The notes under the pieces: generated by a model
The model's input: only the letters and a program-made list of their open reading frames with translations
What the model was told of the DNA's origin: nothing
Databases searched by the model: none
Translations under genes and position numbers: made by a program
Assembly: GCF_018977255.1 (NCBI RefSeq)
Contig: NW_024704742.1
Location: 40,178,001 to 40,242,000, forward strand
DNA from: Callorhinchus milii
Lineage: Eukaryota
Reading direction: 5' to 3'
DNA: 64,000 nt
Shown here: positions 1,431-49,856 of the stretch, piece after piece
How positions within the stretch are numbered: position 1 is the stretch's first letter
Layout of the letters: each line of letters begins with the position of its first letter

Positions 1431-4400
1431 TACAACAACTTGCACTTATATAGCACCCTCATCAGAGGGCAGCGTCTCAAAGCAGTTAACAGTGATGCAG
1501 CCTGACTCCGAGCCGGGGGGAGGATTGGGGTAAGTGGCCGGAAGCACAGTCAAAGAGGAAGGTTTTCAGGTGGGCCTTGAAAAGGGGAGAGCGGGGGCAA
1601 GATGGAGGGATTGAGGGAGAGTGTTACAGAGGTTTGGGGCGTAGTGGCTGAAAGCACAACCTCCGATGGTGGGCGGAGGGTACGAGGGACAAGGAAGAGG
1701 CCAGTGCCAGTCGAGCGGAAACGCAGGTGGTTGATTGGGGAGTGAGGAGGTCAGAGAGGTAGGGAGGTGCCAGAGAGTGAAGGGATTTGAACACTAGTGT
1801 GAGGATCTTGAAGTTGATCCGTTCGGTGATGGGGAGCCAGTGGAGCCCGGCCAGAACTGGTGAGATGTGGGTACGGAGTTTAGTCTGGGTCAGTATGTGG
1901 GCGGCAGAGTTTTGAATGAGTTGAATCTTGTGAATAGTTGAGCTGGGGAGACCAGCGAGGAGTGTGCTGGAGTAATCCCAGTGGGAGGTGACAAATGCAT
2001 GCACGAGGGTTTGGGCTGCATTTGGGGTAAGGTACAGTCGGGGGTCAGGGACCAGATGTGGGGGAGGAAGGACAGCTGGGGGTCGAACCAAACGCCTAGA
2101 TTGCACACTGGTAGGGTGAGCCTGAGGGAAAGCCCAGAGAGGTTGAGGCGTTTAGATCCACAGGAGCCATGGAGTATGGCTTCCATCTTGTCTATATTCA
2201 GCTGCAGAAAGTTTACATTCATCCAGGCCATGATGTCTGCCAGACAAGCTGATAGAACATGAGTGGACCTGGAGTTGTACTGGAGGAGGCAAAATAGATT
2301 TGTGTGTCATCCGCATACATGTGGAAGTTTACCCCGTGTCTGCGGATGACATTGCCCAGAGGGAGCATATAGATTAGGAAAAGAAGAGGGCCAAGGATGG
2401 AGCCCTGGGGTACCCCACAGGTGACCGGGTGGGGCAGTAGGAGAAACCATTTGCTGAGATGAAATGGAGGCGGTAGGTTAAGTGGGAATCGAACCATGCA
2501 AGTGCCGTCCCACTAAGGTGGATGAGGGAGGAGAGGCGGCGGAGGAGGATGGCGTGGTCGACTGTGTTGAACACGGCAGAGAGATCCAGGAGGACGAGGA
2601 AGCAGAGGGAGCCCCGGTCACAGATAGAGAAAATGTTGTTTGTGACTTTGACAAGCGCTGTCTCTGTGCTGTGGGCAGGGAGAAAACCAGACTGCAGGGC
2701 CTCGAGGAGGGAGAGGTGTGACCGAAGTTGACCTACAACAATGCATTCCAGGACTTTGGCAAGAAAAGGCAGGTTGGAGATGGGATGGTAGTGTGCGAGG
2801 TTAGAGGGATCGAGGGTGTTTTTTTTTTGAGGAGGGGTGTGATGACAGCGTTTTTCAGGGGGAGTGGAACAGAGCCTGAGGAGAGACTGGTTGATCGTGT
2901 CGGCCAGCAACAAGAGAAGGGGCAGTTGAGTGACCAACAGCTGGGTGGGGAGGGTGTCAGGGTAGCAGGTGGTGGACTTCATCTGGGTGATTGTGGTTGA
3001 GAGGGAGGAGGGAGAAATGGGGGTAAAGGAGTGTAAGGAGGCGGGAGTGGTAGGCGTATTGGCAGAGGGAGAAGGCTGTGTGGATGGTCTGGGGGGGTGG
3101 AAGGGGACATGTGGGGGAGGACAATGCAGCCAAGTGGATGTTTTCAATTTTTGAGGTAAAGAAGTCTGGGATCTCTTCACACTTGACATTTGATGTGAGG
3201 ATGGAGGGGGTTTGAGGGGGATGCACAGAGGAGGTGATGGACAGTGGAAAACAGCGTCTTTGGATTGTTGTTTGCCTCCAGGATGACTTTGGAGTAAAAG
3301 TCAGCTTTGGCCTGTGATAGGGAGAGGCGGTAGGTATGGAGGTGCTTGAGCCACAGCTGGCGGTGAATCATGAGGCCATATTTCTGCCATCAGCGCTCGA
3401 GTGTCCGTGTTTGGGTTTTAAATGAGCAGAGATGACTGTTGCACCAGTGGGAGTGGGTGGGTTTGGAAACAACCCTGGATTTCAGGGGAGCCAGGAAAAT
3501 AAAGGTCGTGGAGAGACGGTCATTCAGCAGCTTGACGGCTGCATCAGGATTGCTGCGGGTAGAGGGCCAGAGGGAGAGGAGGTCCGAGGAAGAGAGGGCA
3601 TTTGTGAGGGATTCGGGGAAGGTTTTTCCAGGGGTGGAAAGAAATGGTGGAGGGTTTAGAAGAGGCGAAGGGGAAGTGGGAGGAGAGGGAGATGTGGGAG
3701 GTGAGAGAGATGAGGAAGTGGTCCAAGATGGCCTTGCCCGTGATTGACAGGTCGGAAATGTCAAGGCCATGTGTGATGACGAGTTGATGTGGAGGGTGAG
3801 GTTTAGGGAGGAGAGGAGGGCAGTGAAATCTGAGGAGGTGGTGCAAGGGGAGTTTAGGTGGAGGTTGAAATTCACCCATTATGAGCAGGTGTTCAGTGCA
3901 GAGGGACAGGGATGAGAGGAGAGAGGAGATATCAGTGAGAAAGGAGCCAGATTTGGAGAGGTGGTTAACTATATGAGGGAGAGAGAGGAGAGATGGGAGA
4001 AGGGGAGGTGCTGAAAGGAGGAGAAATAGTCAGAGGAATCGAGGGATAGATCAAGGGAAGCTTGGGAGATGAGGGCCACCCCACCGCCACGTTGTTTGGG
4101 ACAGGGGGTGTGGTGAAAAGTGTAGCCAGGAGGGGAGACTTCAACGAGGGGGACGGGGTCACCGGGGGAGACCCAGGTTTCTGTAAGCCCAAGAATATCA
4201 ATGAGCTCATCCAGGATGAGGTCATGGATAGTAAGGGCTTTGTTGGAGAGAGAGCGGACATTTTGGAGGCAAATTCAGATAGGTTTCCTGGTCGGGGGCA
4301 GTGATGGTACAGAAAGAATTTGGGGTCGTCTGGGAGAAATGACCGTGGTTTGAGGAGCAGGGAAAGTTGGAGAGAGTATGGATGAGGGAGGGGGAAGGGG

Positions 4401-4660
4401 TGTTTGCCTTTCGGAAGCGGTTGCTGCGGAGAGAGTGAGCGATGGGACAGTTGGTGTGGCTACTCTGGGACAACCAATGCCACGATGGGCCTGGTGGAGG
4501 ATGCCCAGGCTGGAGTAGAGGGGAGTCCAGGAGAAAGTGAAGGCGTGGAGAGCAGTGTTAGAGAAGGACAGAGTGGAAGTAGCAGAGTGTGGGGCGTGGG
4601 AGCAGGAACATTTTCAGGTGGAGCGGCTCGGGGCAGAATTAACACTCAAGTCGCAAAACG
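1431..4660 (-). mobile_element. Near-complete ORF2 of an L2-clade LINE, frameshifted
   Basis: APE endonuclease motifs (NVRSL...HDLILDELIDILGLTETW near 4170-4260), RT motifs ([40 protein letters not shown]...MYADDTQIY), C-terminal LHWLPITERINFKIL, and a (GTT)n-type tail. Confidence 0.93.
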
Positions 4661-9694: not shown

Positions 9695-9812
9695 TTACCG
9701 CTTTGTCCTTTTTGCTGGTACTTCTGATTTCTGCTGCCCCCTTCTGCGTTCCACCGGACTAGTTTCACGTTTGCGACCTTGTTTAGTCACAGGACTTGGC
9801 TGACTCCTTGAT
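9695..9812 (-). CDS. BOD1L1: BOD1L1 last coding exon
   Basis: ttgcacag|A TCA...; encodes SRSQPSPVTKQGRKRETSPVERRRGQQKSEVPAKRTKR*, matching the BOD1L1 C-terminus SKTQLSPSIKRKREVSPPGARTRGQQRVEEAPVKKAKR*. Confidence 0.93.
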
Positions 9813-11286: not shown

Positions 11287-11466
11287 CTTGTAACTAAACC
11301 TATTACTGGAGATTTCCCAGGCTTTGAATCAGACGATGGCTTCTCTTTTGCTGAGGTTGCTGAACGTCTTTCTCGTTCAGATACTGCCAAATGCTCAGGG
11401 CTGCTTATTTTTTTGGCTGCTCGCGTAGTTGGTTTATTTTGAGCGTTCAAATCAGATGTCTGGCTT
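11287..11466 (-). CDS. BOD1L1: BOD1L1 penultimate coding exon
   Basis: ccattttgtag|A AGC...ACA AG|gtaaga; open 180-nt frame SQTSDLNAQNKPTTRAAKKISSPE...KSPVIGLVT; phase 2 to 2. Confidence 0.82.
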
Positions 11467-12760: not shown

Positions 12761-13412
12761 CTTGTTTTCTTTTCCTCTTGTTTTGAATGGGTTTTGCATC
12801 GAAGCTCTCTTGGTCTGAAATCTTCTTCAAGTTCACCTGCTTTTTTAACAGGTTCAGATTTACCTTTGTCCTTGGATGCAGATTTCTCTTCGAGCATCTT
12901 CTCTTCTCGTTTTGAAGAGCTTTTGCATCGAAGCTCTCTTGGTCTGAAATCATCTCGACTGGTGGCTGCTTTTTTAACAGGTTCAGATTTACCTTTGTCC
13001 TCAGATGCAGCTTTCTCCTCTTCAAGCTTCTTCTCTTCTCGTTTTGAAGAGGTTTTGCATCGAAGCTCTCTTGGTCTGAAATTTTCTTCTTGAACCATTA
13101 CTGCTTTTTTAACTGGTTCAGATGTACCTTCGTCCTCTGATGCAGATTTCTCTTCAAGCACCTTTTCTTCTTGTTTTGAAGAGCTTTTGCATCGAAGCTC
13201 TCTTGGTCTGAAATGTTCTTGAATTTCACCTGCTTTTTTAACAGGTTCAAATTTACCTTCGCTCTCTGATACAGATTTCTCTCCAAGCATCTTTTCTTCT
13301 TGTTTTGAAGAGATTTTAGATCGAAGCTCTCTTGGTCTGAAACCTTCCTGATTCTTGACTGCTTTTTGAACAGCTTCAGATTTACCACTGTCCTCGGATT
13401 CAGATTTCTCCT
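12761..13412 (-). CDS. BOD1L1: BOD1L1 internal exon made of five tandem 129-132-bp units
   Basis: Long polypyrimidine tract, then gcttgaag|AG GAG AAA...ACA AG|gtaaat; open frame (ORF 12757..13539) with five FRPRELR(C/S)K motifs; phase 1 to 2. Confidence 0.85.
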
Positions 13413-14916: not shown

Positions 14917-15031
14917 CCAAATCAAGGCGCCTCCTTTTGCAAGGGTTTTCAACTGGAGTGTATGGACGCTTAGGTTTTCTTTCTCTTCGAGCAGAACTTT
15001 GTTCTTCAGCATTTTCCACACGGTGTTCTTC
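14917..15031 (-). CDS. BOD1L1: BOD1L1 internal exon
   Basis: ctttcctccccgtgtag|GAA...TTGG|gtatgt; encodes EEHRVENAEEQSSARRERKPKRPYTPVENPCKRRRLDL, cf. BOD1L1 RRRGRKPKRS; phase 0 to 1. Confidence 0.85.
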
Positions 15032-17955: not shown

Positions 17956-20141
17956 GGTACCTCTCTCCAGGGAAAGTGTGCATTCAATTCCAGATGTACA
18001 AAATTTCCATCCATAGGTGACGTGCATATGTGGAACTCTCTTAAGTATGGTGATGGGCTTGCACATGTGTCAGCCATTCAGCCAGCTAAAAAAATACATT
18101 TTATATTGCGCCTTTACATTGGGAGGACGTCTAAAAGTGCTTGACACTCCTGGCGGGCACCCGAGCTGAGGATGAGGGGGTTGGGAGGTTAAAGATGACC
18201 ACAAGCACTGTCAAAAAGGTATGTTTTTACCTGAGTCTTGAATGAGGGGAGATAGGGAGGGAGTCAGAAAGACTCCGGGATGGAGTTCCAAAGAGCAGGG
18301 GCAGATTGGCTGAAAGCCCACCAGCCGATGTTGGGGCGGGGAAATATGAAGCAGGCCAGTGTTCTTTGAGTGAGGGGAGTGATCTAATTGAATACATTGA
18401 GTGTGAATCACATTGCTATAAACAAATAAATATCTGATGTGAGGTTATGGTTATAGAGATCAAAAACATAAGGTATGAGTAATTCAATTTATTGATTTGT
18501 TTGGATGACTGGGCTTCATGCAGTGGTGGACTGTACTGTAATAGTTCCAACTTTTTTTTAAAACAACTCTGGTCCATGCCTAGCTAATTCCAGCTGAGCT
18601 AGAGAAGGAACAAGGCTACTTTGTTTCATAGTAAGTGCAGAGTCCCACTCCAAGGTCCTTGGCATAGTCATAGCAATAATGACTTGACACACAATCAATC
18701 ATAATAAAACTGAAATAAATTGATTTTAACTGGGTAATTAATAACTGGAATAGATCACGTGGAAAGAGATTTAGAATTTGTATCGACTTTGGGGACTGGG
18801 TGGCACAATGTGCCAAACACATTACTTTCACCTCTTGAATTGAGTCCATATTAATTGAACGAGAAGTTTCTTATCCCACTGCTGGTTATAACAGGCCTGA
18901 ATGAAAGAAGCAACTGCAACCTGGTTTAAGAGACCATACGCAGTACAATCTCATTTACAGAAGCCACAAGGACGACTAGTTGAGGAACACAGAAAATTTG
19001 CAATTGTAGAAGTTAATGTACTTAGTCCTTTCACGTTGTTTATTTAAATATACATTGGAAAGGTCCACACATTTTTTTTTGTACACATACACAACTCTAC
19101 CCACAACTCCATCTTATTCTGAAATAACAGTATTGTTGGAGGAGTAATAGGTCTCAGAAACACTTTGGATCGATTGCTCGGCATTTTTCAGCACGGATAA
19201 CTCTGAATAAACCATCATTGTTCACCAGCAATAAAATCTCTTTAGATTTGCCTGGCTGTAAAACGGATGTCTTCCAATTTCTGGTACTTCAATGTTTTTT
19301 GAAGACCTTACAACTTAATTACCTTGGATTGGGTCCAAAACCTGATTTGCTCACAAACATAACTGGAAATTGGTGAATAGCTCTTCGTTAATCCAGAATA
19401 TCAGTCCTAAACTTTTTTGTTATCAGCAGGGTGTGTGATAAATGCGGAAAAACATTACCGTGCTTAAGCATATCCAGTTAGGGCTTTGGTTTGCAGGGTT
19501 AACCAAAGCTAAATTGGAAGAATCCGTCCTCTGGTGAGGTGCTTTGGTAAACCTAGTCCTGCCTTGCAACACTGTAGGCTCATCTGGTTCAGGAACTGCC
19601 ACAGAGGTCTGAATCGATTCCGACATTCTGTTGTCAAGTATGTCACCTTGGAGCTAACTCAGCTCCAAGGAGACCTCACTTGCTCCAATTCCCGGTGCCC
19701 CCTCCCAATTCCAGGATAAACATTAATTGGTCAGTTGCCATCATACAAGTGCAGGTTTGAGCCCTCACGAGGAAGATAATAGGTACCAGGAACACCCTTA
19801 GCTTCCTGGTGAGCAGCACAGCTAAGCTCAGCAGATCACGTCCTTGATCAGCAGCTGCTTACCTCTCTGCATACCAATCTAGGTGTATTCCAAGCCCTAG
19901 ATATATGAATAAGCGTTCACAAACCTGGACTGCAGGCAACACCTTCCAGCAGCTATCCTTCCAAGCTTCAGAGTTTCCTCATCAGCCATTTGACAGACAC
20001 CTGCCTTCAGCGTGGTGGGAGGATCGATACAGGTCAACTTATGATGTGCCAGCCACTGTGATGTTCTAGCTTTACCAAAGCACCTCACTAGAGGACCTGG
20101 TTAAACATTTACTGATATACATTTTATACAAATACACTTAC

Positions 20142-20218
20142 CACATCTTCAGGTTTCTTATCAGAACTGCCAATCTTGTTGACTTCAGAAACTGTATTCT
20201 GCTGAACCGGTAAATCAT
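20142..20218 (-). CDS. BOD1L1: BOD1L1 internal exon
   Basis: caaatag|AT...GTG|gtaagt; encodes DDLPVQQNTVSEVNKIGSSDKKPEDV; phase 1 to 0 fits the neighbours; sequence itself is poorly conserved. Confidence 0.72.
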
Positions 20219-21961
20219 CTATTTGAATAGATAAAGAAATTGAGAATGTTTCTTATAAAGCAGCATAGAAGTTTTAAAAAATCATAGCAAATAAGAGTTA
20301 TGAGCCAGTTTTGCCTTAGCATGTTTGAACAAAAATTAAAATCACACAAAACAATTGTCTACAGAATAATGCACACAAAATATTCATCAGTTGCAGAGTT
20401 CTCAAAGACTACTTTGCAAATACAGGGTGACAAAAAGGTCTATTTTTCAGCTATCCTACTATCTAAAAAAAACTCATCATTACTTTAAGACTTATTAGAC
20501 ATTGTAATGGTATCATGTCTTTTTGTTCATCCTGTATATAATGGCACGCAAAGCAAATTATTCCTGGCTAAACATGCTGCAATGGCATTACGGCAGTAAA
20601 CCCATCAATAAGACAGCAGTGAGTATTGACAGTGTCAATGTAATACACTTCATAAATGTTAGAGCACACACTAAATACTATAGCTGGGAATGATTACCTT
20701 ATCAAGAGGGTTAGATGCCACAATATGCAATCTTACAACAGTCACTGAAGACAGATAAAATTACAACTAATCTACGTGGTTATCTGTGCCTCGCATAGAT
20801 AAGATGCCTGATATTAGCTAATTCAATTCCAATGTGCACTTTGGGTTCCCCAATGCCACGGCTTCTGATAATCCACGCACGTGTTCTTGCACACAAACAA
20901 AATAAAGTGTCCCCCATCTCCCTTTCACCCAGAGAAGATTTGGCTTTCCAAAAGCAGCAAATCGAAACTCTTTCAAATTCCTCCATGCCTGTTCCCCTTC
21001 CCCCCATTCTGTCTCTGCAACTTTACAGTTCTAATCACTTCCTCTGCTCAACAAACATTGACCAGCAACCTGTTTTATGCCCAACCCATTCCACCATTGA
21101 CGGGCAAGCTTTTAGCCATTCTACCCCCACTCTCTGAGACCCATCCCTCCATATCTTCAAAACCACAATTAAGACGCATCTTCTTCCGACTATGATTTTG
21201 GCCCAATCCCCCCACCACCCATTCTTGTCACTATGTGCTACAAAATGGATAAGTGACTAATAACTGAATTGTTCCATTATAAGCACACATTCTCACTGTC
21301 ACTACTTCAAACTGAAGATTACACCGATGCACAATATCTAATAATAATAATCTTGTATTTGATATCCCGCCTTTCACATGGGGAGGATGTCCCTAAGTGT
21401 TTCACGGGATATACTGTGAAGAGATTGTGTATTTGTGAGTGATTACGGCAGCCAATTTGTGCACATCACTTTCCCACAAACAGCCATGAAATACAGGACC
21501 AATTTTATTTGGGGTATTGTTGGTCAGGACATTGGGAAACGGATGGAATCCTTAACGTCCACCCATCATGAAAGTAACTATTGTACTTTTCCTCCCAGTT
21601 GATCAAGTGGGAAGTTTGCCAGTCAGTGCTTTCGATAGTAAGCAATGTGGTTTTAGTTAGTTAAACTCCATCAGTAACAGAACACTCTGAGATCACCAAG
21701 CATCGACTCTTGCCAACCTGCATCTAATACTCTCAGAATTAGGTTAGCAATTCCTTCTCTCCAGACATGGGAATTTCTATGTGTAGGTGGCATGCATGGA
21801 CCTCTCAATCTGGTTTGGATACACTTAAACATGGCGTGCGTTTCCACGCGAGTCAGACACCCAGCTGACCAATCAAAAATAAAGCAACATTTTGGTAAAA
21901 GTTCGACTCAAGGCGTTACACTAAATCAAGTATTATTAATAAGCATTTTACAATCTCTTAC

Positions 21962-24900
21962 CTTGAGTCTTTGCATTGGAAAGGTCAGTTTTGGTATCAG
22001 GTTCTTCAGTTTGTTGCTGTTCTTTTGAATGCTCTTTACACTTTTCTGTAGTCTGAAGCTCTTGCTGCTCTGAGGTCTCTACAGTAGGTTCAGTTAGTTT
22101 TTGGACAACAGAGGGTGCCTCATAGTTAAAATCATCATCGAGTGCTGGTGTAGTAGGGTCAAACTGTGCAATTCGCATAACAGGATTTGGAAGACTTGAA
22201 TTATTCATACTGGGAATATCAGAAGAAATAGTCTCACAAGGACGAAGAGATCGAGGTGCACCAGAATCTTGAGGAATATTTAATTTCTTTGGCCTTGGTA
22301 TATCATCGTGAGGTAATTTCTCCACTAGTTCTGGTTTGCCTGACAGGAGTGCTTCACAATCATCTGTTTTGTTTTGTGAAGTTTCAACATCTTGCTTACT
22401 TGCAGGTATTTCCTTTGCAGGGTTTTCTTCATTATCCTGAACTTCAGAGATTTCACCACTCTCTTCTATTAAAGCTTCCATCTTTATATTTTCTGAACCA
22501 TGCTGTGTATTTTCGTTTGTATCTGGCAAACTTGCTTTCGACTCTGCTTCGAGTGAATTGTCTTGCGACTCTGCATCGGGTGAATTGTCTTTCGACTCAG
22601 CTTCGGGTGAATTGTCTTTCGACTCAGCTTCGAGTGAATTGTCTTTCGACTCAGCTTCGGGTGAATTGTCTTTCGACTCTGCATCGGGTGAATTGTCTTT
22701 CGACTCAGCTTCGAGTGAATTGTCTTTCGACTCAGCTTCGAGTGAATTGTCTTTCGACTCAGCTTCGGGTGAATTGTCTTTCGACTCAGCTTCGGGTGAA
22801 TTGTCTTTCGACTCAGCTTCGGGTGAATTGTCTTTCGACTCAGCTTCGGGTGAATTTCCTTTCGACTCAGCTTCGGGTGAATTTCCTTTCGACTCAGCTT
22901 CGGGTGAACTGTCTTTCGACTCAGCTTCGGGTGAACTGTCTTTCGACTCAGCTTCGGGTGAATTGTCTTTCGACTCAGCTTCGGGTGAATTTCCTTTCGA
23001 TTCTGCTTCGGGTGAATTTCCTTTCGATTCTGCTTCGGGTGAATTTCCTTTCGATTCTGCTTCGGGTGAATTTCCTTTCGACTCGGCTTCGGGTGTCTTT
23101 CCTTTCGATTCCGCTTCGGGTGAATTTCCTTTCGACTCAGCTTCGGGTGAATTTCCTTTCGACTCAGCTTCGGGTGAATTTCCTTTCGACTCAGCTTCGG
23201 GTGAATTTCCTTTCGACTCTGCTTCGGGTGAATTTCCTTTCGACTCAGCTTCGGGTGAATTTCCTTTCGACTCAGCTTCGGGTGAATTTCCTTTCGACTC
23301 AGCTTCGGGTGAACTTCCTTTCGACTCAGCTTCGGGTGAATTTCCTTTCGACTCAGCTTCGGGTGAATTGTCTTTCGACTCAGCTTCGGGTGAATTGTCT
23401 TTCGACTCAGCTTCGGGTGAATTGTCTTTCGACTCAGCTTCGGGTGAATTGTCTTTCGACTCAGCTTCGGGTGAATTGTCTTTCGACTCAGCTTCGGGTG
23501 AATTGTCTTTCGACTCAGCTTCGGGTGAATTGTCTTTCGACTCAGCTTCGGGTGAATTGTCTTTCGACTCAGCTTCGGGTGAATTGTTTTTCGACTCAGC
23601 TTCGGGTGAATTGTCTTTCGACTCAGCTTCGGGTGAATTGTCTTTCGACTCAGCTTCGGGTGAATTGTTTTTCGACTCAGCTTCGGGTGAATTGTCTTTC
23701 GACTCAGCTTCGGGTGAATTTTCTTTCGACTCAGCTTCGGGTGAATAGTCTTTCGACTCAGCTTCGGGTGAATTTTCTTTCGACTCAGCTTCGGGTGAAT
23801 CTTCTTTCGACTCAGCTTCGGGTGAATTTTCTTTCGACTCAGCTTCGGGTGAATTTCCTTTCGACTCAGCTTCGGGCGAATTTTCTTTCGACTCAGCTTC
23901 GGGTGAATTTTCTTTCGACTCAGCTTCGGGTGAATTTTCTTTCGACTCAGCTTCGGGTGAATTTTGTTTCGACTCTGCTTCGGGTGAATTTTGTTTCGAC
24001 TCTGCTTCGGGTGAATTTTGTTTCGACTCTGCTTCGGGTGAATTTTGTTTCGACTCGGCTTCGGGTGAATTTTCATTCGATTCTGTTTCAGGTGATTTTT
24101 CTTCCGACTCTGCTTTGGTTGAATTTTCATTCGATTCTGTTTCAGGTGATTTTTCTTCCGATTCTGTAATCGGTGAACTTTCTTTCGATTCTGTTTTAAG
24201 TGAATTTTCTTTAGATTCTGTGTCTGACAAATTTTCTTGAGCTTTGGGATCTGGCAAACTTGCTTTCAATACGGTATCCGGTACATTTTCTTTTGATTGT
24301 GTTTCTGGTAAATTTTCTTTTGAATCTGTATCCGGCAAATTTTCTTTCAATTTTGTTTCTGCCGAATTTTCTTCTGATTTTATATTTTGCAAACTTGCTT
24401 TTGCTTTTGGATCAGCTAAACTTTCTTTTGATTCCACATCTAGCAAATTATCAGTTGATTTTGTTTCTGGTGAATTTTCTTTTGATTTTGAAGCTGCGGA
24501 AGTTTCTTTTGACATTGTACCTGGTGAATTTTCTTCAGCTTCAGTATCTGGCAAACATTCTTTTGATTTTATGTCTGGGCAACCTTCTTTTGACATTGTA
24601 TCTGGCAAATGTTCTTTTGATATTGGACCTGGCAAATTTTCTTCAGATTTTATTTCTAGTGAAATTTCTTTTGAGATTGTATCTGGCAAATGTTCTCTTG
24701 TTTTTTTATCAGATACATTTTCTTTTGATATTAGATCTGAGGAACTTTCTTTTCTTTTTGTATCTGGCAAATTTTCCTTTGACTTTGTATCTGGGGTACC
24801 TTCTTTTGATTTTATATCATGTGATTTTTCTTTAGATTTTGTACCGTGTGAGCTTTCTTTTGATTTTGTATCTTGTGAGTTTTCTTTTGATTTTGCATTT

Positions 24901-27047
24901 TGTGAACTCTTTGACTTTGTATCTTGTACAATTTCTTTTAGTTTGACATCTTGTAAGATTTCTTTCATAAGCTGAGAAGTTTCAGTATCATTTCCCCGTT
25001 TCTCTCCTTTTTCATCATATTGAATGTCTTCCTGTATATTTTTCTTCAATTTTGACTGTGAATGTTCAGAATCATTTTCTTTTTGCTTTTCGTTAACTTT
25101 TATATCTTCTACACTTTCCTTAGATTTTGACTTAGATTCAGATTCTTTTCTGTTACCTTTTGTATCTTGGACATTTTCCTTAAACTTTGATAGAGAGTTT
25201 TCAGGTTTGTTCCCTCTCTCGTTGTTTCGAATATCTTCTTGAACCTTTGTGTTAGATTTTAACCGAACATCTTCGGTTTCATCACGTTTTTCTTTCATTT
25301 TTTCCATGGTACGAGTATCTTCGTGTGCTTTTTCTTTAGATTTTGAACGAGACTTTTCATAATCGCTTCTTTTTTCTATTCCTTTCTCAGTACCCTGCAT
25401 TTTTTCCTTGCATTTTAAGCGCGAGTTCTCCGAATATTCTTTGGGTTTTGAGCGAGAGCTCTCAGAATCGCGTCTCTTTTCTACTCTTTTCTCACTCTTG
25501 TGAACATCTTCCTGTACTTTTTCCTTGCATTTTGCCTGCATGTTTTCTGAGTGTTCCTTGGACTTCGATCGAGAGTTTTCAAAGTTGCGCCTCTTTTCGA
25601 TTCCTTTCTCATTACCCTGAATATCTTCCTGTACCTTTTCCTTGGATCTTGACCGTGAATTTTCAAATTTCTGTCTTTTTTCTATTCCCTTCTCATTGCT
25701 CTTTGTGCCTTCCACACCTTCTTGCAAGTGTTCTTTTGATTTAGACCTAGAATTTTCAAAATTCTTTCTTTTATCTTTGCTTTTCGTACCTTCTTGTATA
25801 GTTTCCTTGGACTTTGAACGTGAATTTTCAGATTCATTTCTCCTTTCCTTGCTTTTCTCATTAACTTTAGTATCTTCCTGTATGATTTCCTTAGACTTCG
25901 ATCGTGAATTTTCAGATCCATGCCTCCTTTCTTTGCTTTTCTCATTTCCTTTAGAATCTTCCTGCAAGTTTTCCTTAGATTTTGATCGTGAGTGTTCATA
26001 TTCATTTCTCTTCTCCTTGTTTTTAGCATTGTCTAGTTTATGCTCCTTGGATTTTGACCGAGTGTATTCAGATTCATTCCTCTTTTCCTTACCTTTTTCA
26101 TGACCTCTAGCATCTTCTTGCAAGTTTTCCTTGGATTTTGACCGACAGCGTTCAGACTCCCTTCTTTTTTCCTTACCTTTTTCATGTCCCTTATCATCTT
26201 GTACATTTTCCTTGGATTTTGACAAAGAATGCTCAGATTCTTTCTTTTTATCTTTGCCTTTTGTATTTTCCTGCATATTTTCTTTTGATTTTGATCTAGA
26301 ATTTTCAGAGTTATTTCTCTTCTCTCCGCCTTTAATATCTTCCTGCGTGTTCTCCTTGGATTTTGAGTGTGAATGTTCAAATTCATGCCTCTTTTCTTTG
26401 CACTTCTCATGGCTTTTGTTATCTTGCTGTGAGTTTTCCTTGGATTTTGATCGCAGGTTTTCAGAATCATGTCTCTTTTCTTTTCCTTTCTCGATGCCTT
26501 TTTCTTCCTTTACTTTTGATAGTTCTCTAGACTTGGCATTTTTGCCATGCTCTGCTACAGGTAAGTCTTCACAAATGGTTGGAGAGACCACAGCTCTATC
26601 ACCCTTCAACAGCATTAAGCGACTGCAATTGGACTTGGCTTTCTCCTCTGGAAAATCTCTCAACTTCTGATCAATGTCTGTGCAAGTATCTGCCTTTGAA
26701 CCATTCTCAGATACCACAAGTTCACTATCATCAGTTTCTCTGACTTGCCTTCCTTCAGCTTTCTGCCTTGATAATTCTTTACTGCTGGCATCTGTATCCA
26801 TTTCATAATCATTTATTTTAACCTTATCAACTTGAGTTGCTTTCAATACTTTCAGATCCGAATCCTGAGCTAAAGAGTTGCTTCTTAAATGTTTTTGGCA
26901 AGGTTCATGATGCACGTCTGGTTCATTTGTGCTGTCCTCATTTGACTGAATGGACTCTGAGCGTCCAACATGCTTTGATGGCAAATCTGTGAACTGTATA
27001 CAGTTGGATTCCTTTGAAGTGGAGGATGGAGAAGCATTTTCCATGTC
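21962..27047 (-). CDS. BOD1L1: BOD1L1 giant central exon (5,086 nt), low-complexity and repeat-rich
   Basis: ttttttttcag|GAC ATG...CAAG|gtaag; uninterrupted 1,695 codons (ORF 21948..27044); phase 0 to 1; same position in the gene as the very large central exon of vertebrate BOD1L1. Confidence 0.92.
22532..24070 (-). repeat. Coding minisatellite, 27-bp unit x about 57 (SPEAESK[Q/E/D/G/N]N)
   Basis: Unit AATTCACCCGAAGCTGAGTCGAAAGAC repeated in tandem; copies counted from the translation. Confidence 0.97.
24071..24950 (-). repeat. Degenerate coding 27-bp (9-aa) repeats, KSKENLPDT-like
   Basis: About 30 diverged 9-aa units (KSKENSQDT, KSKEGTPDT, ISKEHLPDT, ESKENSLKT) continuous with the homogeneous array. 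Confidence 0.85.
24990..26470 (-). repeat. Coding repeats, mostly 24-28 aa (ENSRSKSKENxQEDxKGxEKxKExR)
   Basis: About 20 recurrences of an RSKSKE core in the translation. Confidence 0.85.
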
Positions 27048-27640
27048 CTGAAAAAAAACTTTCGGTTAGGGCGTGTCTAAGTTCTCAGATACACAAGTAA
27101 TTCATCCCTTTACAAATAGGTAGCCCATTTTCTAGATGTTACACAGAGTCCAGTTCTGTGAATATATGATGATATATCCAGGATGTGATATCTACCTTGA
27201 TTTGTATGCAATTTTTTTCTGAAACTTCACATTTTCAACTGGTGGAACTATCACTCAGTGGGTAGGGATATATGTTTGAGTAATAGGTAGAAGGATGGCA
27301 GCAATAATCCCACATGCTTCATTCTGATCTGTGTTGGTCACCAAAAGGCTCCCAAGGAGTTCCTGATCCCTACTACCCACCTAGCCTGCGCTGGTCAGAT
27401 GTTTAATGGCCAACTAGTGACTATCTGGGGTGGGGGGGAAGCAACGAAAGTATGTGATCTCCTTGGGGCCCAGATAGCTCCACAGTAATTACTTGGCTGT
27501 GAATTATTGGAATTGAATTAACATGTGGTCTTGACGGTATGGTTCCCGAACCAGGTGGATGTGCTGTAGACTTGGGGGAACAGACCAGTCAGCCATGGAT
27601 TCTTCCTGCTTGGCTCCTGATAACCCTGCAAACTAAAGTG

Positions 27641-27959: not shown

Positions 27960-28062
27960 CTTTTCTGTGATCAATTTAATAAGCGCCTCCTTCAATTCTT
28001 CAGGATGTTCACGCTTCCTTTTTCGATCTTCATGGTGCAAAGCAAATTCCTCGGATATATTT
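27960..28062 (-). CDS. BOD1L1: BOD1L1 internal exon
   Basis: tttttcag|A...AAG|gtaat; open frame NISEEFALHHEDRKRKREHPEELKEALIKLITEK; phase 2 to 0, which bridges the neighbouring exons exactly. Confidence 0.85.
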
Positions 28063-29275: not shown

Positions 29276-29426
29276 CTTGAATGTCCTTTTTGTTTTTTTC
29301 TCAATGCCACTTTTTTCTCTAAGACTCTTTGTTCTTTCAACGTTGCTTTGCTTACTTTTGAAATTGAGGTTGCGGACTGCTGCATTTTCTTCAAACTGAT
29401 TTCGATATCCAAACTACTTTCATTAC
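29276..29426 (-). CDS. BOD1L1: BOD1L1 internal exon
   Basis: ttccag|GT...AG|gtata; encodes GNESSLDIE...LKEQRVLEKKVALRKKQKGHSR, cf. BOD1L1 LKERKVLEKKVALSKKRKKDSR; phase 1 to 2. Confidence 0.92.
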
Positions 29427-30384: not shown

Positions 30385-30523
30385 CTTGTTCCAGTGTTTT
30401 GATACATTCGCTCTCTCTCTTCGTGTCATCTTGCAATCTGTCTTTATCAGTTTCTAGGTGTTTATCCTCCACCCTTTCCCTGTTCCACTGTCTCCTGAGT
30501 AACCGCTCTGCTTTCTCTTTTGC
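30385..30523 (-). CDS. BOD1L1: BOD1L1 internal exon
   Basis: ttcatag|GCA...CAAG|gtaat; encodes AKEKAERLLRRQWNRERVEDK..., cf. BOD1L1 AKEKEERLLRRQINREKLEEK; phase 0 to 1. Not in the ORF track. Confidence 0.92.
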
Positions 30524-31825: not shown

Positions 31826-31983
31826 AACTGACTGTCGTCGCTGAACCACAGTTTCTTCATCATCTGAGTCACTGTAGTACTTTGAATATAGGAAAGGTTT
31901 ATGGATATACGGATGGCGTGCAGGTTTTGCTTTATCCTCCTTATGATGTTCATCATTTGTTTTCAATGCCATGCTTTCTTTTC
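31826..31983 (-). CDS. BOD1L1: BOD1L1 internal exon
   Basis: ttttccag|GA...GTT|gtaag; encodes KPARHPYIHKPFLYSKYYSDSDDEETVVQRRQSV, matching the conserved BOD1L1 motif RHAYVHKPYLYSKYYSDSDDELTVEQRRQSI; phase 1 to 0. Confidence 0.93.
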
Positions 31984-33363: not shown

Positions 33364-33388
33364 NNNNNNNNNNNNNNNNNNNNNNNNN
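33364..33388. other. Assembly gap (25 N)
   Basis: Run of 25 N. Confidence 1.
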
Positions 33389-33760
33389 TGGGGGTGGAGG
33401 TGGTTACAGGCCGCTGTGTGTGTGAGGTGTGGGGGTGGAGGTGGTTACAGGCCGCTGTGTGTGGTGTGGGGGTGGAGGTGGTTACAGGCCGCTGTGTGTG
33501 TGTGTGTGGGGGTGGAGGTGGTTACAGGCCGCTGTGTGTGGGGTGTGGGGGTGGAGGTGGTTACAGGCCGCTGTGTGAGGTGTGGGGGTGGAGGTGGTTA
33601 CAGGCCGCTGTGTGTGTGTGTGTGGGGTGGAGGTGGTTACAGGCCGCTGTGTGAGGTGTGGGGGTGGAGGTGGTTACAGGCCGCTGTGTGGTGTGGGGGT
33701 GGAGGTGGTTACAGGCCGCTGTGTGTGAGGTGTGGGGGTGGAGGTGGTTACGGGCCGCTC
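33389..33760. repeat. G-rich minisatellite in intron 1 (GGGGTGGAGGTGGTTACAGGCCGCTGTGTG... about 36-44 bp)
   Basis: About 9 tandem units with a variable (TG)n tract, running into the assembly gap. Confidence 0.95.
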
Positions 33761-33792: not shown

Positions 33793-33909
33793 CTTGGTGT
33801 CCACATCCGCCAGGCAGTCGCGGCGGAATTGGTCAAACAGGCCCTGGCTCTTGAGGTGGTTGACGATCATAGAGACGAGTTTGGGGTCTCCGGCAGGAAG
33901 AGCCGCCAT
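33793..33909 (-). CDS. BOD1L1: BOD1L1 coding exon 1 (start of BOD1/COMPASS-Shg1 domain)
   Basis: ATG in ggagcgATGG context; encodes [39 protein letters not shown], almost identical to the vertebrate BOD1L1 motif [33 protein letters not shown]; ends at AAG|gtaacc, phase 0; 117 nt = 39 codons. Confidence 0.95.
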
Positions 33910-34012
33910 CGCTCCCGCACCGCCGCCCGGAATCACTGCGGCATGCCGGGAAACAGCACTTCCGGCAACAGCCCGAGCGCCAGACACGTGACCCAACGGC
34001 AGCGTCACCGAC
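33910..34012 (-). promoter_or_regulatory. BOD1L1 CpG-rich proximal promoter / 5'UTR
   Basis: CpG-dense; ETS site CACTTCCGG (33957-33965), E-box CACGTGAC (33985-33992), CRE half-site near 34003; TATA-less housekeeping pattern directly upstream of the ATG. Confidence 0.7.
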
Positions 34013-36075
34013 AGAGGGACAGTGAGAGAGAGAGTGATACAGAGAGTGAGTGATACAGAGAGACAGAGAGAGTGACACAGAGAGACAGAGAGAGTGAGAG
34101 AGTGAGAGAGACAGAGAGAGTGACACAGAGAGACAGAGAGAGTGACACAGAGAGACAGAGAGAGTGACACAGAGAGACAGAGAGAGTGAGAGAGTGAGAG
34201 AGACAGAGAGAGTGATACAGAGAGACAGAGAGAGTGATACAGAGAGACAGAGAGAGTGATACAGAGAGAGTGATACAGAGAGACAGAGAGAGTGATACAG
34301 AGAGACAGAGAGAGTGATACAGAGAGACAGAGAGAGAGACAGAGAGAGTGAGAGAGACAGAGAGAGTGATACAGAGAGACAGAGAGAGTAATACAGAGAG
34401 ACAGAGAGAGTGATACAGAGAGACAGAGAGAGTGATACAGAGAGACAGAGAGAGTGAGAGAGACAGAGAGAGTGAGAGAGACAGAGAGTGAGTGATACAG
34501 AGAGACAGAGAGAGTGAGAGAGACAGAGAGAGTGATACAGAGAGTGAGTGATACAGAGAGACCGAGAGAGTGATACAGAGAGTGAGTGATACAGAGAGAC
34601 AGAGAGAGAGAGTGAGAGAGACCGAGAGAGTGATACAGAGAGTGAGTGATACAGAGAGACAGAGAGAGAGAGTGAGAGAGACCAAGAGAGTGATACAGAG
34701 AGTGTGATACAGAGAGTGAGTGATACAGAGAGACAGAGAGAGTGAGAGAGACCGAGAGAGTGATACAGAGAGTGTGATACAGAGAGTGAGTGATACAGAG
34801 AGACAGAGAGAGTGAGAGAGACAGTGAGAGTGATACAGAGAGTGTGATACAGAGAGTGAGTGATACAGAGAGACAGAGAGAGTGAGAGAGACAGAGAGTG
34901 AGAGGTACAGAGAGAGTGAGAGATACAGAGAGTGATACAGAGAGTGTGATACAGAGAGTGAGTGATACAGAGAGACAGAGAGAGTGAGAGAGACAGAGAG
35001 AGTGATACAGAGAGTGTGATACAGAGAGTGAGTGATACAGAGAGACAGAGAGAGTGATACAGAGAGTGTGATACAGAGAGAGTGAGTGATACAGAGAGAG
35101 TGATACGGAGAGAGTGAGAGAGACAGAGAGTGATACAGAGAGAATGAGAAAGACAGTGAGAGTGAGAGGTACAGAGAGAGTGAGAGGTACAGAGAGAGTG
35201 AGAGGTACAGAGAGAGTGAGAGATACAGAGAGTGAGAGAGACAGACAGAGTGAGAGAGACAGACAGAGTGAGAGAGACAGACAGAGTGATACAGAGAGAG
35301 TGAGAGAGACAGAGAGTGAGAGAGACAGAGAGTGATACAGAGAGAGTGAGGGAGACAGAGAGAGATACAACGAGTGAGAGAGACAGAGAGAGTGAGAGAG
35401 ACAGAGAGTGATACAAAGAGTGAGAGAGACAGAGAGAGTGAGAGACAGAGAAAGTGAGTGATATACAGAGGTATACAGAGAGAGATATACAGAGATATAG
35501 ATACAGAGATAGTGAGAGAGATATACAGAGAGAGAAATACACAGACATATGCAGAGAGAGATACAGAGATACACAGAGAGATATACAGAGAAAGAAGGAG
35601 ATACAGACAGAGAGAGAGTGATACAGACAGAGAGAGGGAGATAATACAGAGAGAGAGAGAGGCATAGAGAGAGATCGGCACAGAGAGAGTCAGAGAGATA
35701 TACAGAGAGAGAGAGATGCAGAGAGAGATATACAAAGAGAGATACAGAGAAAGGCAGAGAGATACAGAGAGGCAGAGAGATAAACAAGAGAGGCAGGGAG
35801 AGTTATACAGAGAGAGAGGTAAGAGAGAAAGATAGCACACAGTGCAAGGTACAGAGAGAACGATACACAGATATAGAGAGATACAGAGAGAGAGAGAGAG
35901 GAACAGAGAAATACACACATGGAGAGACAGAGAAAGATACAGACAGAGACACAGAGGTACAGAGAGAGACCAAAAGTTACAAAGAGGGACACGCAGAGAG
36001 AGACAGGTACAGAAAGAGATGCACACAGAGAGGTACACATAGCCACAGAGAGAGGTGCAGCGAGAGATACACAAC
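34012..36075. repeat. (GA)-rich compound satellite (GAGAGTGATACAGAGAGACA-type units)
   Basis: About 2 kb of purine-rich units of about 10-22 bp, homogeneous near the promoter and decaying distally. Confidence 0.97.
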
Positions 36076-36084
36076 AACAATACA

Positions 36085-37148
36085 CAAACAACAACAACAA
36101 AATTACATTTGTAAAGCACCTTTTACATCAGGAGGACGTCCCAAGGCACTGGACAGACAAGAGTTACGGACCTGAGCTGGGGGTAGATGTGAGGGTGGGT
36201 GGGTGGGTGGGAGGGGGAGGCTGGAGGGCGGGGAGGAAGCGGGAGATCGAAAGCATGGTAGAAAAGGAGGGTCTTGAAGGTGAGGAGGGAGGGGGCAAGG
36301 CGGAGGGAATGCGGGATGGAGTTCCAGAGGGTGGGTGCAGAGTGGCGGAAGGCCCGCCCGCCAATAGTGGGGCGAGCAAGATGGGGGACATGAAGCAGGC
36401 CAGAGCCCGCTGAGCGGAGGGAGCGACAGGATGGTAGGGTTAGGAAGTTGCAGAGCTAGGGAGATCAAGACCGTGGAGGGCTTTGAAGGTGAGGACCAGG
36501 ATCTTGAACTGTATCCTCTGAGTGATGGGAAGCCAGTGGAGTTGAGCAAGCATGGGGGTGATAGGGTCGTGGAGCCTGGTGCGGGAAAGGACATGGGCTG
36601 TAGAGTTCTGGATAATCTGCAGCCTGTGGAGAGAGGAGTTGGGGAGGCCGACAAGCAGTGAGTTTGCATAATCGAGCCTCAATGTAATGAAGGCATGTAT
36701 GAGAGTTTTGGCGGCCTGCGGTGTGAGACATTGGCAGAGCCGCGTGACGTTGCGTAGGTGGGGGAAGGCAGAGCCGGTCATGGTGCAGATGTGGTGTAGA
36801 AAGGATAGTTGAGGGTAAAACAAGACCTCAAGGACAGAACTGGCTTCATAAGGTGGAGTGTGCAACCATGGATGGTGATGCTGTCAGCGCCTGAGGTGAG
36901 GGGCGCTGACGGGAGCCAATCAGGAGAGCCTCGGTCTTGTTGACATTTAGCTGAAGAAAGTTTGCTCTCATCCAGGACGTGATGTTAGACAGACATTCTG
37001 TCAGCACAGCAGTGGTCCTGGAGTCGAGGGTGGAGGCAGAGAGGTACAGTTGTGTGTCATCCACATACATGGGGAAGTTGACCCCATGTCTGCGAATGAT
37101 GTCACCAAGAGGGAGCATATAGATATTGAAGAGGAGGGGACCAAGGAC
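36085..37148 (-). mobile_element. 5'-truncated L2 LINE inserted in the upstream satellite
   Basis: [61 protein letters not shown]; (TTG)n tail. Confidence 0.92.
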
Positions 37149-38030
37149 AGAGAGGTACACACAGACACATAGAGAGAGGTATACATAGTCACATAGACAC
37201 ATGGAGGGAGGGAGGGAGGGAGGGAGGGAGGGAGGGAAAAGTACACACAGTCACAGACACGTGGAGAAAAAGATAGAGACAGGCACACACAGCCACAGAG
37301 ACACATGGAGAGAAAGAGGTACACACTGGCACATGGAGAAAGATACACAGACACGGAGAGAGGTACACACAGCCACAGAGATGATTCGATAACAACTTTT
37401 AAGAGAGAAGTAGATAATTATTTGGGCAGAACAAGTTTGCAGTTCTATGGGGAAAGAGCAGAGGAATGGGATTGATTTGGATAGCTCTTTTCAAAGATCT
37501 GGCACAGACACGATGGGCCGAATGGCCTCCTTCTGTGCTGTATAATTCTATGATTCTAATTCCATGATTCAGCCACAGGGACATGTGGAGAGAGATACAC
37601 AGACCCAGAGAGAGACACAGACACAGATTGAGACAAATACACGAAGAGAAAGAGATATACAGAGATAGAGACACAGGTATAGCGAAAGAGATACACAGAG
37701 ACATAGAGAGACAGATATACACAGAGAGATAGATACACACAGAGTGAGAGAGTTATGCACACATACAGAGGGAGAGAGTTATGCACACATACAGAGGGAG
37801 ACAGAGAGAGTGAGAAACACCTACAAATGGACAGACACACGGATATCAGAGATTTACACAAAGATTGTGAGAGAGAGACTAACAACTTACATTGATATAG
37901 TGCCCTTTATGCAGGGAAGCTTCTTGGACCGGCTAAAGACCGACTCACGGAGGGTGAGAGAGATGCACAGACAGACAGACTGATGAGAAAGACAAACAGT
38001 GGGAGATGCAGATAGACAAAGAGAGAAAAT
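37146..38030. repeat. Older, degenerate continuation of the (GA/CA) satellite
   Basis: Same AGAGAC/ATACAC composition on the far side of the L2 insertion; interrupted by a CR1 3' end. Confidence 0.8.
37381..37568 (+). mobile_element. CR1 3'-terminal fragment
   Basis: gacacgatgggccgaatggcctccttctgtgctgtataattctatgattct terminus; a sister copy lies at about 57970-58110. Confidence 0.8.
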
Positions 38031-41287: not shown

Positions 41288-41950
41288 CAACAACAACAAC
41301 AACAAGATTCCATTTATAAAGCGCCTTTCACGTCAGGAGGACGTCCCAAGGCGTTGCACAGTTGGGTCATGACCCGAGCAGGGGGGAAATGGTCAGGGTG
41401 AGGGGAGGGAAGGGAGGGAGAGAGGAGGGGGAAATGGTCAGGGTGAGGGGAGGGAAGGGAGGGAGAGAGGAGGGGGAAATGGTCAGGGTGAGGGGAGGGA
41501 AGGGAGGGAGCGAGGAGGGGGAAGAGAGTCGAGAGGGGAGCTGAAGGCTCGGTCAAGAGAAAGGTTTTGAGACCGGCCTTGAAGGAGGAAAGGGAGGAAG
41601 CGGCGAAGGCACTAGGGGATGGAGTTCCAGAGCCTGGGGGCTGAGAGGCTGAAGGCCCGACCACCGATGGTAGGGCGGTTGGGGCGGGGGACGTGGAGCA
41701 GACCGGAGCCAGAGGAACGGAGGGTACGGGCAGGTAGGTAGGGGGATAGTAGGTCAGAGAGGTAGGAGGGAGCAAGGCCGTGAATGGCCTTGTAGGTGAG
41801 GATGAGGATCTTGAAATCAATCCGCTGGGGGATGGGGAGCCAGTGGAGGCGAGCGAGGGTGGGAGTGATGTGGTCCCGAAGCCTGGTGCGGGACAGTACA
41901 CGAGCTGCAGAGTTCTGAATGACCTGCAGCTTGTGGAGGGAGGTGGGGGT
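41288..41950 (-). mobile_element. L2 LINE 3' fragment with a 3 x 45-bp tandem repeat in its 3'UTR
   Basis: LQVIQNSAARVL...LHWLPIPQRIDFKIL; GGGGGAAATGGTCAGGGTGAGGGGAGGGAAGGGAGGGAGAGAGGA x3 at about 41382-41520. Confidence 0.9.
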
Positions 41951-42529
41951 TTGTTGGCCAAGGCACAGGTAGAAACTCTTCTCTTTACATTCCACAAAGG
42001 TGTATATACCACAAGGTTACCCTATAGTGAACCACAGCAGCTTTGCATCCTTCGAATTTGTCACTGGCAAAAGAAAAATTCAGCTAGGGCTGTTATTCCC
42101 AATTGCTCTTGTGACTTCCCCTCTCCCCTCCCGTTCTGTTGCTTTGAAGTGCACACATGTAGATGCTCAATGCAGACAAGATTGGCCTTGACAGTGACCC
42201 CCTGTAATTAATTGCCTACTTCACTCATTCATTATGGGGTCTCACACATGAAGAATGATGACTTGGATCTGGTATTGAAGGACATTCAGTGTGAGAAGGG
42301 ACAGACAGAAAACGTTGTCAGTAGTTAACTGCTGCAGAAAATTGCTGTTGGATATTCATTTTATCAACGGCATAGAATTCAAAACCAAAGGTAATGTTTA
42401 ACTTGTAAATAATAATAATACAACTTACATTTGGTATAGTACTTTTCATGTCGGGAGAACATCCCAAAGAGTTTCACTGGATATTCTGTAAATACGGAGA
42501 CTGCGTGTTTTATGGGCGACATTTAATAT

Positions 42530-49179: not shown

Positions 49180-49856
49180 ATGTCCTTTCTCCCCCACATC
49201 CGAGCCATGACCAGCACTGCCTACCACCACCTCCACAGCATTGCCAGACTCCACCGCTGCCTCGCCCCTCAGGCTGCCGAAACCCTCACCCACGCATTCG
49301 TCACCTCAAGGCTTGATTATGGAAACTCCCTCTTCATCGGCCTTCCCAACTCTTCCCTTCACAAGCTGCAGATCATCCAAAACTCTGAGCTTGTGTACTC
49401 TCACGCGCCAGGCTCCGTGACCCGATCACTCCCACCCTCACCCGACTCCACTTTCAAGGCCATCCATGGCCTTGCCCACTCCTACCTCTCTGACCTGCTG
49501 ACTGCCTACCAACCTCCCCACTCCCTGCGTTCAGCGGGCTCCGGTCTGCTCCATGTCTCCCGCCCGACCCGTCCTACCATCGGTGGCCGGACTTTCAGCC
49601 TCTCTGCCCCCACACTCTGGAACTCCATCCCACAGTCCCTTTACCTCGCTTCCTCCCTTGCCTCCTTCAAGGCCAGTCTCAAGACCCTCCTCTTCGATTG
49701 TGCCTTCTTTCGCCCTCCCACCTCTCTGCCTTCCCTCACCTCTTCCCCACCTCTCCCCCATGCTCGGATCCTGATCCCTGGCTGTCCAGTGCCTTGGGAC
49801 GTCCTCCCTCCCGACGTGAAAGGTCCGCTACAAATGTAATTTTGTTGTTGTTGTTG
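49180..49856 (+). mobile_element. L2 LINE 3' fragment
   Basis: HAFVTSRLDYGNSLFIGLPNSSLHKLQIIQNS...SFKASLKTLLF; (TTG)n tail. Confidence 0.92.

Follow-up and report, generated by a model that had tools for sequence, protein, structure and literature searches.

A young coding minisatellite in the central exon of chondrichthyan BOD1L1, probably tolerated as an acidic spacer

Lineage-specific coding minisatellites in disordered protein regions are a known kind of repeat, and the PRDM9 array is an example of a coding minisatellite under concerted evolution. Here we describe such an array in a 64,000-nucleotide stretch of Callorhinchus milii DNA (contig NW_024704742.1, hereafter the window), in which 57 units of 27 bp, encoding SPEAESKxN, stand in tandem within the large central exon of the gene BOD1L1. 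The array is probably a lineage-restricted minisatellite, driven by recombination, that is tolerated in a disordered exon and acts as an acidic spacer.

Two described systems with many proline-directed sites serve for comparison. The PST repeats of MDC1 vary in copy number between species, with 13 in human and 7 in mouse, and form a basic region with a pI of 9.85, according to the excerpted text of PMC6858307. Their minimal T-P sites are described as CDK1 substrates, with repeat number tuning chromatin binding (excerpt of PMC13548061). The KSP tails of the neurofilament proteins NF-M and NF-H are the other system; an excerpted review states that removal of the KSP sites of NF-M left axon calibre unchanged (PMC10758125). 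No publication on the present array turned up in the literature on BOD1L1 with sharks or tandem repeats, as covered by titles and the starts of abstracts; supplements could list the locus.

A young array at the end of an older one

The 57 consecutive units, each of 9 codons and 27 nt, run from 24068 to 22530 on the minus strand with zero indels, inside a frame that is stop-free over 21948-27065. Tandem Repeats Finder (TRF) reports a period of 27, a score of 2563 and 94% matches. There are 19 distinct DNA units, with an average pairwise difference of 8% and a longest identical run of 216 bp. Variants stand in blocks (Q x4, E-rich, D/N, G-rich, D, L/D), and adjoining units differ by 1.09 nt, as against 2.21 when their order is shuffled, a value as low being reached in 0 of 10,000 shuffles. 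The original prediction of about 57 in-frame, indel-free 27-bp copies, with block-wise variants pointing to local unequal crossover, is borne out on both counts. The array fits the definition of a coding minisatellite, with head-to-tail units of 10-100 bp, in frame within a coding exon, and variants clustered among neighbours.

The encoded segment of 513 amino acids (aa) contains no Arg, has a net charge of -91 (-0.18 per residue) and is classed as disordered by its charge-hydropathy balance. No Pfam family was matched in the large exon or the array, and an ESM Atlas search gave only matches below 0.9, with low recognition. Open reading frames (ORFs) that overlie the array in a second frame or on the other strand were set aside as by-products of a stop-free unit. 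A scan for LxxIxE, the PP2A-B56-type motif, found two loose matches in the large exon, none in the array and none in common with sharks; KEN occurs 6 times in the young array and 8 times in the older part described next.

The 57 units are the young end of an array of about 90. The original prediction had missed its upstream continuation, 33 older units that continue in register to 24959, 31 of them recognisable. These have the consensus SPDTKSKEN and a pairwise difference of 38%, with no stop and no indel. In the absence of coding constraint, units so diverged should hold 9.1 stops, and they hold none (P(0)=0.0002), which shows that the older part has been kept coding. The last young unit and the codons after it look like old units again. 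Glu8 is the most conserved position of the old units (28/31) and the most variable of the young ones, and GC content is 47.5% in the young array and 31.8% in the old part.

That the array is an assembly artefact, with only a few real units, is scarcely credible. The window does have gaps, identical runs reach the length given above, and two annotations of Scyliorhinus torazame that differ by nine units (below) imply that unit counts of this kind can shift from one assembly or individual to another. On the other side, 19 distinct units stand in ordered blocks, and the same array edge and raised depth recur in four of four sequencing runs, so the array itself exists; the count of 57 is that of the assembly and may be off.

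The array in transcripts

Contigs of these four runs (X1-X4, one organism) were compared with 20050-22610, a segment ending three units into the array. One contig each from X1 and X2, which come from two studies, carries the joint of a canonical intron (20218 to 21962, CT..AC on the forward strand) and then runs to 22605, entering nearly three units of the array. Within 21962-22605, X1 and X2 have no other joint or loose end among the loose ends listed. X3 and X4 cover the intron without the joint and are unspliced and DNA-like. The short-read contigs of all four runs end at the same array position, 22605, and the summed depth of the array bin relative to its flank is 39x in X1, 7x in X2 and 21x and 37x in X3 and X4, ratios that do not give a copy number. 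Word shares in sequencing runs, at most 0.65, were left aside, since 54% of the distinct 31-mers come from the flank alone and the shares therefore do not tell flank from array. Two differences from the window were also seen in these contigs: a Ser to Ala change in the last young unit at 22556 (X1), and a silent difference in an Arg codon at 22253 (X1, X3 and X4).

Several samples thus contain the array, and about three units at its 3′ end occur in spliced RNA, the rest lying beyond the contig ends. Most transcripts might omit the array, through internal splicing or an alternative donor, as the contigs cover its 3′ side and none spans it. We regard this as highly improbable, given that the X1 and X2 contigs run from the exon at 20141-20218 through the joint to 22605 and that the diverged old units are stop-free; the raised depth, in spliced and unspliced runs alike, adds weak support only.

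Other arrays in the same exon of relatives

Eleven elasmobranch BOD1L1 matches were found, ten of which cover the array site, and the 9-aa array of the window is in none of the ten. Four of them carry arrays of their own in the same central exon. Units of 11 aa are repeated 50 times in S. torazame, 39 times in Stegostoma and 8 times in Cetorhinus, and these three shark arrays may have one origin; Narcine (P0010) has a 9-aa S-Q unit in nine copies. The shark units are slightly basic, made of Ser, Arg and Lys and RS-rich, and that of Narcine is S-Q-rich, S/T-Q being an ATM/ATR-type motif. S/T-P occurs 0 times in the array of S. torazame, 3 times in Stegostoma, and not at all in Cetorhinus or Narcine. 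The Narcine array (residues 1333-1412 of P0010) is 96% identical between units, has 8 S/T-Q motifs and is located some 80 residues upstream of where the window array stands. Two S. torazame annotations, P0013 and P0015, differ by one 99-aa gap, or nine 11-aa units, plus 4 mismatches, which reflects either length polymorphism or assembly collapse. Repeat expansion also explains broken gene models in cartilaginous fishes, namely the split P0128/P0016 and the truncated P0011.

When the arrays are cut out in silico, the flanks of the window array align to one short segment in the ten elasmobranchs, which carries T-P only in Pristiophorus. With moderate confidence, given that the region is repetitive, the 9-codon segment that was amplified in the window is single-copy in sharks and rays.

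Outside cartilaginous fishes, the 110 bony-vertebrate BOD1L1 entries examined (from the best 120 of 590 matches) showed no central array; they form a set that spans amniotes, sturgeons, paddlefish and coelacanth, many entries being redundant or partial, and that has no named teleost, amphibian or jawless fish. In a single entry, P0020, which is marked as a possible contaminant, there is a repeat at the C-terminus. These comparisons agree with the original expectation that the array is not general in vertebrate BOD1L1. The chondrichthyan central exon as a whole (window 21962-27047; residues 566-1717 of P0001) has no BLASTP match to the same 110 entries with SEG on, which indicates that it has turned over between chondrichthyans and bony vertebrates. 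SPEAESK occurs in none of the 150 HMMER matches listed (best 150 of 497); BOD1L1 anchors are present in one of these (P0172), which matches the 3′ flank only, and the top 36 are unrelated repeats, mostly with a period of 9 or its multiples.

Phosphorylation motifs in the array

The Ser/Thr residues at positions 1 and 6 of the 57 units (114 sites) were scanned with the usual consensus patterns for CK2, GSK3, MAPK, PLK1 and CK1. Units begin with S-P in 52 cases, T-P in one and S-L in four, close to the roughly 50 S-P sites originally predicted, and the minimal S/T-P motif is therefore present in 53 of 57. Whole elasmobranch proteins have 9-16 such sites and the human protein 23. CDK1 is reported to prefer Pro at +1 and Lys at +3 (excerpt of PMC12794331); the full CDK pattern (S/T-P-x-K/R) is found at 0 of the 53 sites, as is the MAPK pattern (P-x-S/T-P), and none has a basic +3 residue. 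The CK2 pattern (S/T-x-x-D/E without Pro at +1) fits 1 of the 114 sites. The residue at -3 from Ser6 is acidic in every one of the 57 units. Lys precedes the site in one unit, as K-T-P. The CK2-like context and the likeness to neurofilament KSP repeats that had been proposed both fail on these counts, and what stands is a large number of minimal proline-directed sites.

Such a number could mean a selected switch, in which a CDK1-like kinase would phosphorylate up to 53 S/T-P sites and prime GSK3-type sites in 52 units; the charge would fall far below -91, BOD1L1/SETD1A would be released from chromatin or the basic half of the exon masked, and copy number would tune the effect. We consider this possible but unlikely. 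It would account for the excess of S/T-P over elasmobranch and human proteins, it agrees with a scarcity of amino-acid changes in the core codons (below), and the MDC1 PST repeats offer a precedent (PMC13548061, in excerpt). In 52 of 57 units, moreover, the next S-P comes four residues after Ser6, as at primed GSK3 sites; however, a 9-residue period with two serines gives S-x-x-x-S-P automatically. Further against a switch, the kinase patterns fit as poorly as described, S/T-P is present in only 6 of 31 older units, relatives' arrays have 0-3, and an acidic array without Arg differs from the basic MDC1 region (PMC6858307).

A broader version of this idea, which we hold to be rather doubtful, is that the central exon of chondrichthyan BOD1L1 is a multivalent module that has been re-tuned repeatedly: basic and RS-like in sharks, S-Q-bearing (ATM/ATR-type) in a ray, and acidic with primed S-x-x-x-S-P in the window lineage, where selection would act on the SPEAESK core. 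About 105 switchable sites could then eject BOD1L1-SETD1A from mitotic chromatin or mask the basic half, and the array might be an independently built, acidic counterpart of the MDC1 PST repeats.

CpG content and mutation

Every one of the 57 young units keeps at least two CpGs. The ratio of observed to expected (o/e) CpG is 1.36 in the array and 0.40 in the window, and old units mostly carry CCA and TCA at the codons that hold CpG in young units. Variant analysis rests on 18 non-independent events, with the consensus taken as ancestral for the polarity of changes between weak (W) and strong (S) base pairs. CpG transitions arose at 0 of 4 possible places (two of them synonymous) while 18 other substitutions arose, which has a probability of 0.0005 at a five-fold CpG mutation rate and of 0.18 at an equal rate. 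The observation that CpGs are intact holds, but the youth first concluded from it is not supported, since these counts indicate that youth alone does not explain them. Ten variants are W-to-S and three S-to-W; GC-biased conversion, low germline methylation or both would explain the kept CpGs and the rise in GC.

The same pattern might speak for a role of the DNA itself, as an unmethylated CpG-rich intragenic element or a recombination hotspot to which the peptide is incidental. The high CpG ratio, the missing CpG transitions and the codons of the old units would all suit such a role, which we nevertheless judge very unlikely: the GC content of the array is only 47.5%, and biased conversion during expansion would give the pattern without any function, so that this account overlaps the one we prefer. 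A further point against it is that the K/S/R-rich part of the large exon at 25001-25750, outside the array, likewise has a CpG o/e above 1, at a GC content of only 34-39%.

Probable growth of a tolerated spacer

We favour the view that the array is a recombination-driven minisatellite tolerated as a spacer. A 9-codon segment would first have been amplified to about 31 units, which then diverged; later, one S-P-bearing unit near the 3′ end would have been amplified to 57 copies. The engine was presumably unequal exchange with conversion between units, as the observed blocks suggest, and the reading frame was kept because the unit length is divisible by three. Selection clearly keeps the region coding, but its length and a good part of its sequence seem free to vary, and the protein would gain an acidic disordered spacer of about 800 aa that separates its C-terminus from a basic K/S/R-rich stretch. 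S-P sites that lie accessible in disordered parts of nuclear proteins are often phosphorylated, and those of the array probably are so to some degree, by proline-directed kinases, as a by-product of the copied unit.

Tolerance is favoured by the similarity of neighbours, the in-register old units, the contrast at position 8 between old and young units, the relatives' own arrays and a second expansion in the gene, at 12761-13412. Over the whole unit, amino-acid-changing variants arose at 13 of 57 possible places and synonymous ones at 5 of 17 (Fisher p=0.75), with no depletion, and the S-L variant, which destroys S-P, spread to 4 copies. That different repeats expanded in one exon of several species fits a hotspot of tolerated repeats better than a special switch for phosphorylation.

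Several points weigh against this view. Within codons 1-7, amino-acid changes occurred at 4 of 42 possible places and synonymous ones at 5 of 15 (Fisher p=0.044), and amino-acid changes cluster in codons 8-9 (simulated P of about 0.001 or less, also when scan-corrected); the depletion resembles purifying selection on SPEAESK, although the events are few and dependent. The W-to-S excess, in the absence of an S-to-W mutation bias, is not significant (P=0.06). MDC1 is a precedent for such an array being functional and tuned by CDK1 (PMC13548061, excerpt). Three protein searches and one HMMER search of cluster representatives turned up no chimaera orthologue by which to date the array inside its lineage.

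Work on the human protein cuts both ways. CRISPR tiling in human leukaemia cells is reported to show dependence on the Shg1 domain and not on the disordered tail, and all human BOD1L1 constructs except the Shg1 deletion rescued (excerpt of PMC11381347). Overexpression was used in that rescue, which limits what it says about a tolerant tail and counts among the points above. So does the report that PP2A binding in pull-downs was strongest for aa 500-2001, the central region of the human protein (10.1101/2023.08.06.552174, in part), by which that region is not inert in human; several sites and partners are also placed in the human tail (PMC12794331, excerpt). Neither human result transfers directly, because the exons of fish and human have no visible similarity.

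The array is a clear case of the growth of a disordered exon in a genome-stability protein, in which an old and a young array are nested in one species and relatives carry others unrelated to them, and is of modest interest for repeat evolution and for the poorly understood tail of BOD1L1. Should the phosphorylation switch be true, natural variants would offer a direct test of the role of that tail, and a kinase-tuned module would have arisen anew by expansion.

The BOD1L1 gene in the window

Collinear matches at 60-80% to the shark proteins P0001 and P0002 identify the gene as chondrichthyan BOD1L1, as originally proposed; its long C-terminal extension is unlike the short BOD1 and BOD1L2. Exon 1 matches profile positions 2-26 of 102 of PF05205, above the curated cut-off. 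The ten exons after it, all with AG/GT ends, give an open model of 2258 aa to the stop at 9695 (Table 1). The exons for residues ~40-376 of the orthologue, with the rest of the Shg1 domain, are probably hidden by the 25-N gap. This gap adjoins a 39-bp tandem repeat (33389-33759) in intron 1, and about 2 kb of degenerate GA/CA microsatellite lie directly upstream of exon 1 (34000-37800 region, with more up to 37800). Degenerate K/S/R/E-rich repeats of 72-84 bp are present in the 5′ half of the large exon. The exon at 12761-13412 is required for the frame into the last exons, and sharks have about 44 residues there, which suggests a second internal expansion in the same gene.

Table 1. Coordinates of the array and of BOD1L1 features in the window
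Feature	Positions	Strand	Basis
Homogeneous young end of the array: 57 units of 27 bp encoding SPEAESKxN	22530..24068	-	TRF, unit count, alignment
Degenerate older units continuing this array (33 in register, of which 31 can be recognised)	24069..24959	-	TRF, unit table
Coding exon 1, 39 aa, start of the COMPASS-Shg1 domain	33793..33909	-	92% to P0001; PF05205, E 3.9e-07
25-N assembly gap	33364..33388	.	Residues ~40-376 of shark orthologue absent from window
Exon with conserved YSKYYSDSDD block	31826..31983	-	Orthologue match, exon model
Exon	30385..30523	-	Orthologue match, exon model
Exon	29276..29426	-	Orthologue match, exon model
Exon preceding the large exon	27960..28062	-	Orthologue match, exon model
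Large central exon, 5086 nt, AG/GT ends, holding both array parts	21962..27047	-	Exon model; donor seen in X1 and X2 spliced contigs
Exon following the large exon	20142..20218	-	Spliced joint in X1 and X2; orthologue match
Exon	14917..15031	-	Orthologue match; X2 contig loose end at 20141 reads into it (compared by eye)
Exon of about five 129-bp (43-aa) repeats	12761..13412	-	Tandem-repeat scan, orthologue match, exon model
Penultimate exon	11287..11466	-	Orthologue match, exon model
Last coding exon, basic C-terminus and stop	9695..9812	-	Orthologue match, model

A BOD1L1 tree, built without a zebra finch row (no anchor) and without a BOD1 paralogue, as an earlier tree was built without four anchorless rows, places the window protein within the chondrichthyan clade (support 100/99), on a long branch in an open fork and with 68-77% identity to sharks and rays. 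The branch length and the identity suggest a chimaera, although the tree does not settle this. Topology tests reject neither elasmobranchs excluding the window (approximately unbiased test, p-AU 0.317) nor sharks plus the window (0.138). Nkx3.2 and Rab28 are expected as neighbours of BOD1L1 (PMC9665848, excerpt); neither was seen by eye among window ORFs of at least 75 aa outside 9600-36000. Elsewhere in the window, at 1600-4500, 36100-37250, 41300-42000 and 49150-49850, there are fragments resembling long interspersed nuclear elements, with reverse-transcriptase-like frames, which we take to be of the L2/CR1 type.

Comparison with described systems

The nearest relatives are the BOD1L1 proteins of sharks and rays (P0001 from Heptranchias, P0002 from Pristiophorus), which have the same exon order, the conserved blocks and the Shg1 start. 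Their K/S/R/E-rich central exon is shared with the window at 36-51% identity over matched stretches, but the 9-aa array is absent from them, and about 44 residues stand in place of the five-fold 43-aa exon of the window. In the same central exon, the relatives' 11-aa and 9-aa arrays are, like that of the window, tandem in-frame expansions, with copy numbers of 8-50; they differ in unit and position, and in having 0-3 S/T-P where the window array is acidic with 53.

Further afield, the zinc-finger array of PRDM9 shows homogenised units and blocks of variants as in the window, whose units encode no folded domain. The NF-M and NF-H tails resemble the window array in being disordered, charged and repetitive and in their many S-P sites (PMC10758125, excerpt), but Lys precedes the site in just 1 of 57 window units and the window exon has no intermediate-filament rod. 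The MDC1 PST repeats are likewise a tandem array with proline-directed sites, in a chromatin protein of the DNA-damage response; their units are of 41 aa, basic, and bind the nucleosome acidic patch, whereas the window unit is of 9 aa, acidic and without Arg, and no homology between the two was seen. By analogy, the MDC1 repeats are the closer counterpart than the neurofilament tails, and the array could work as a multisite charge switch.

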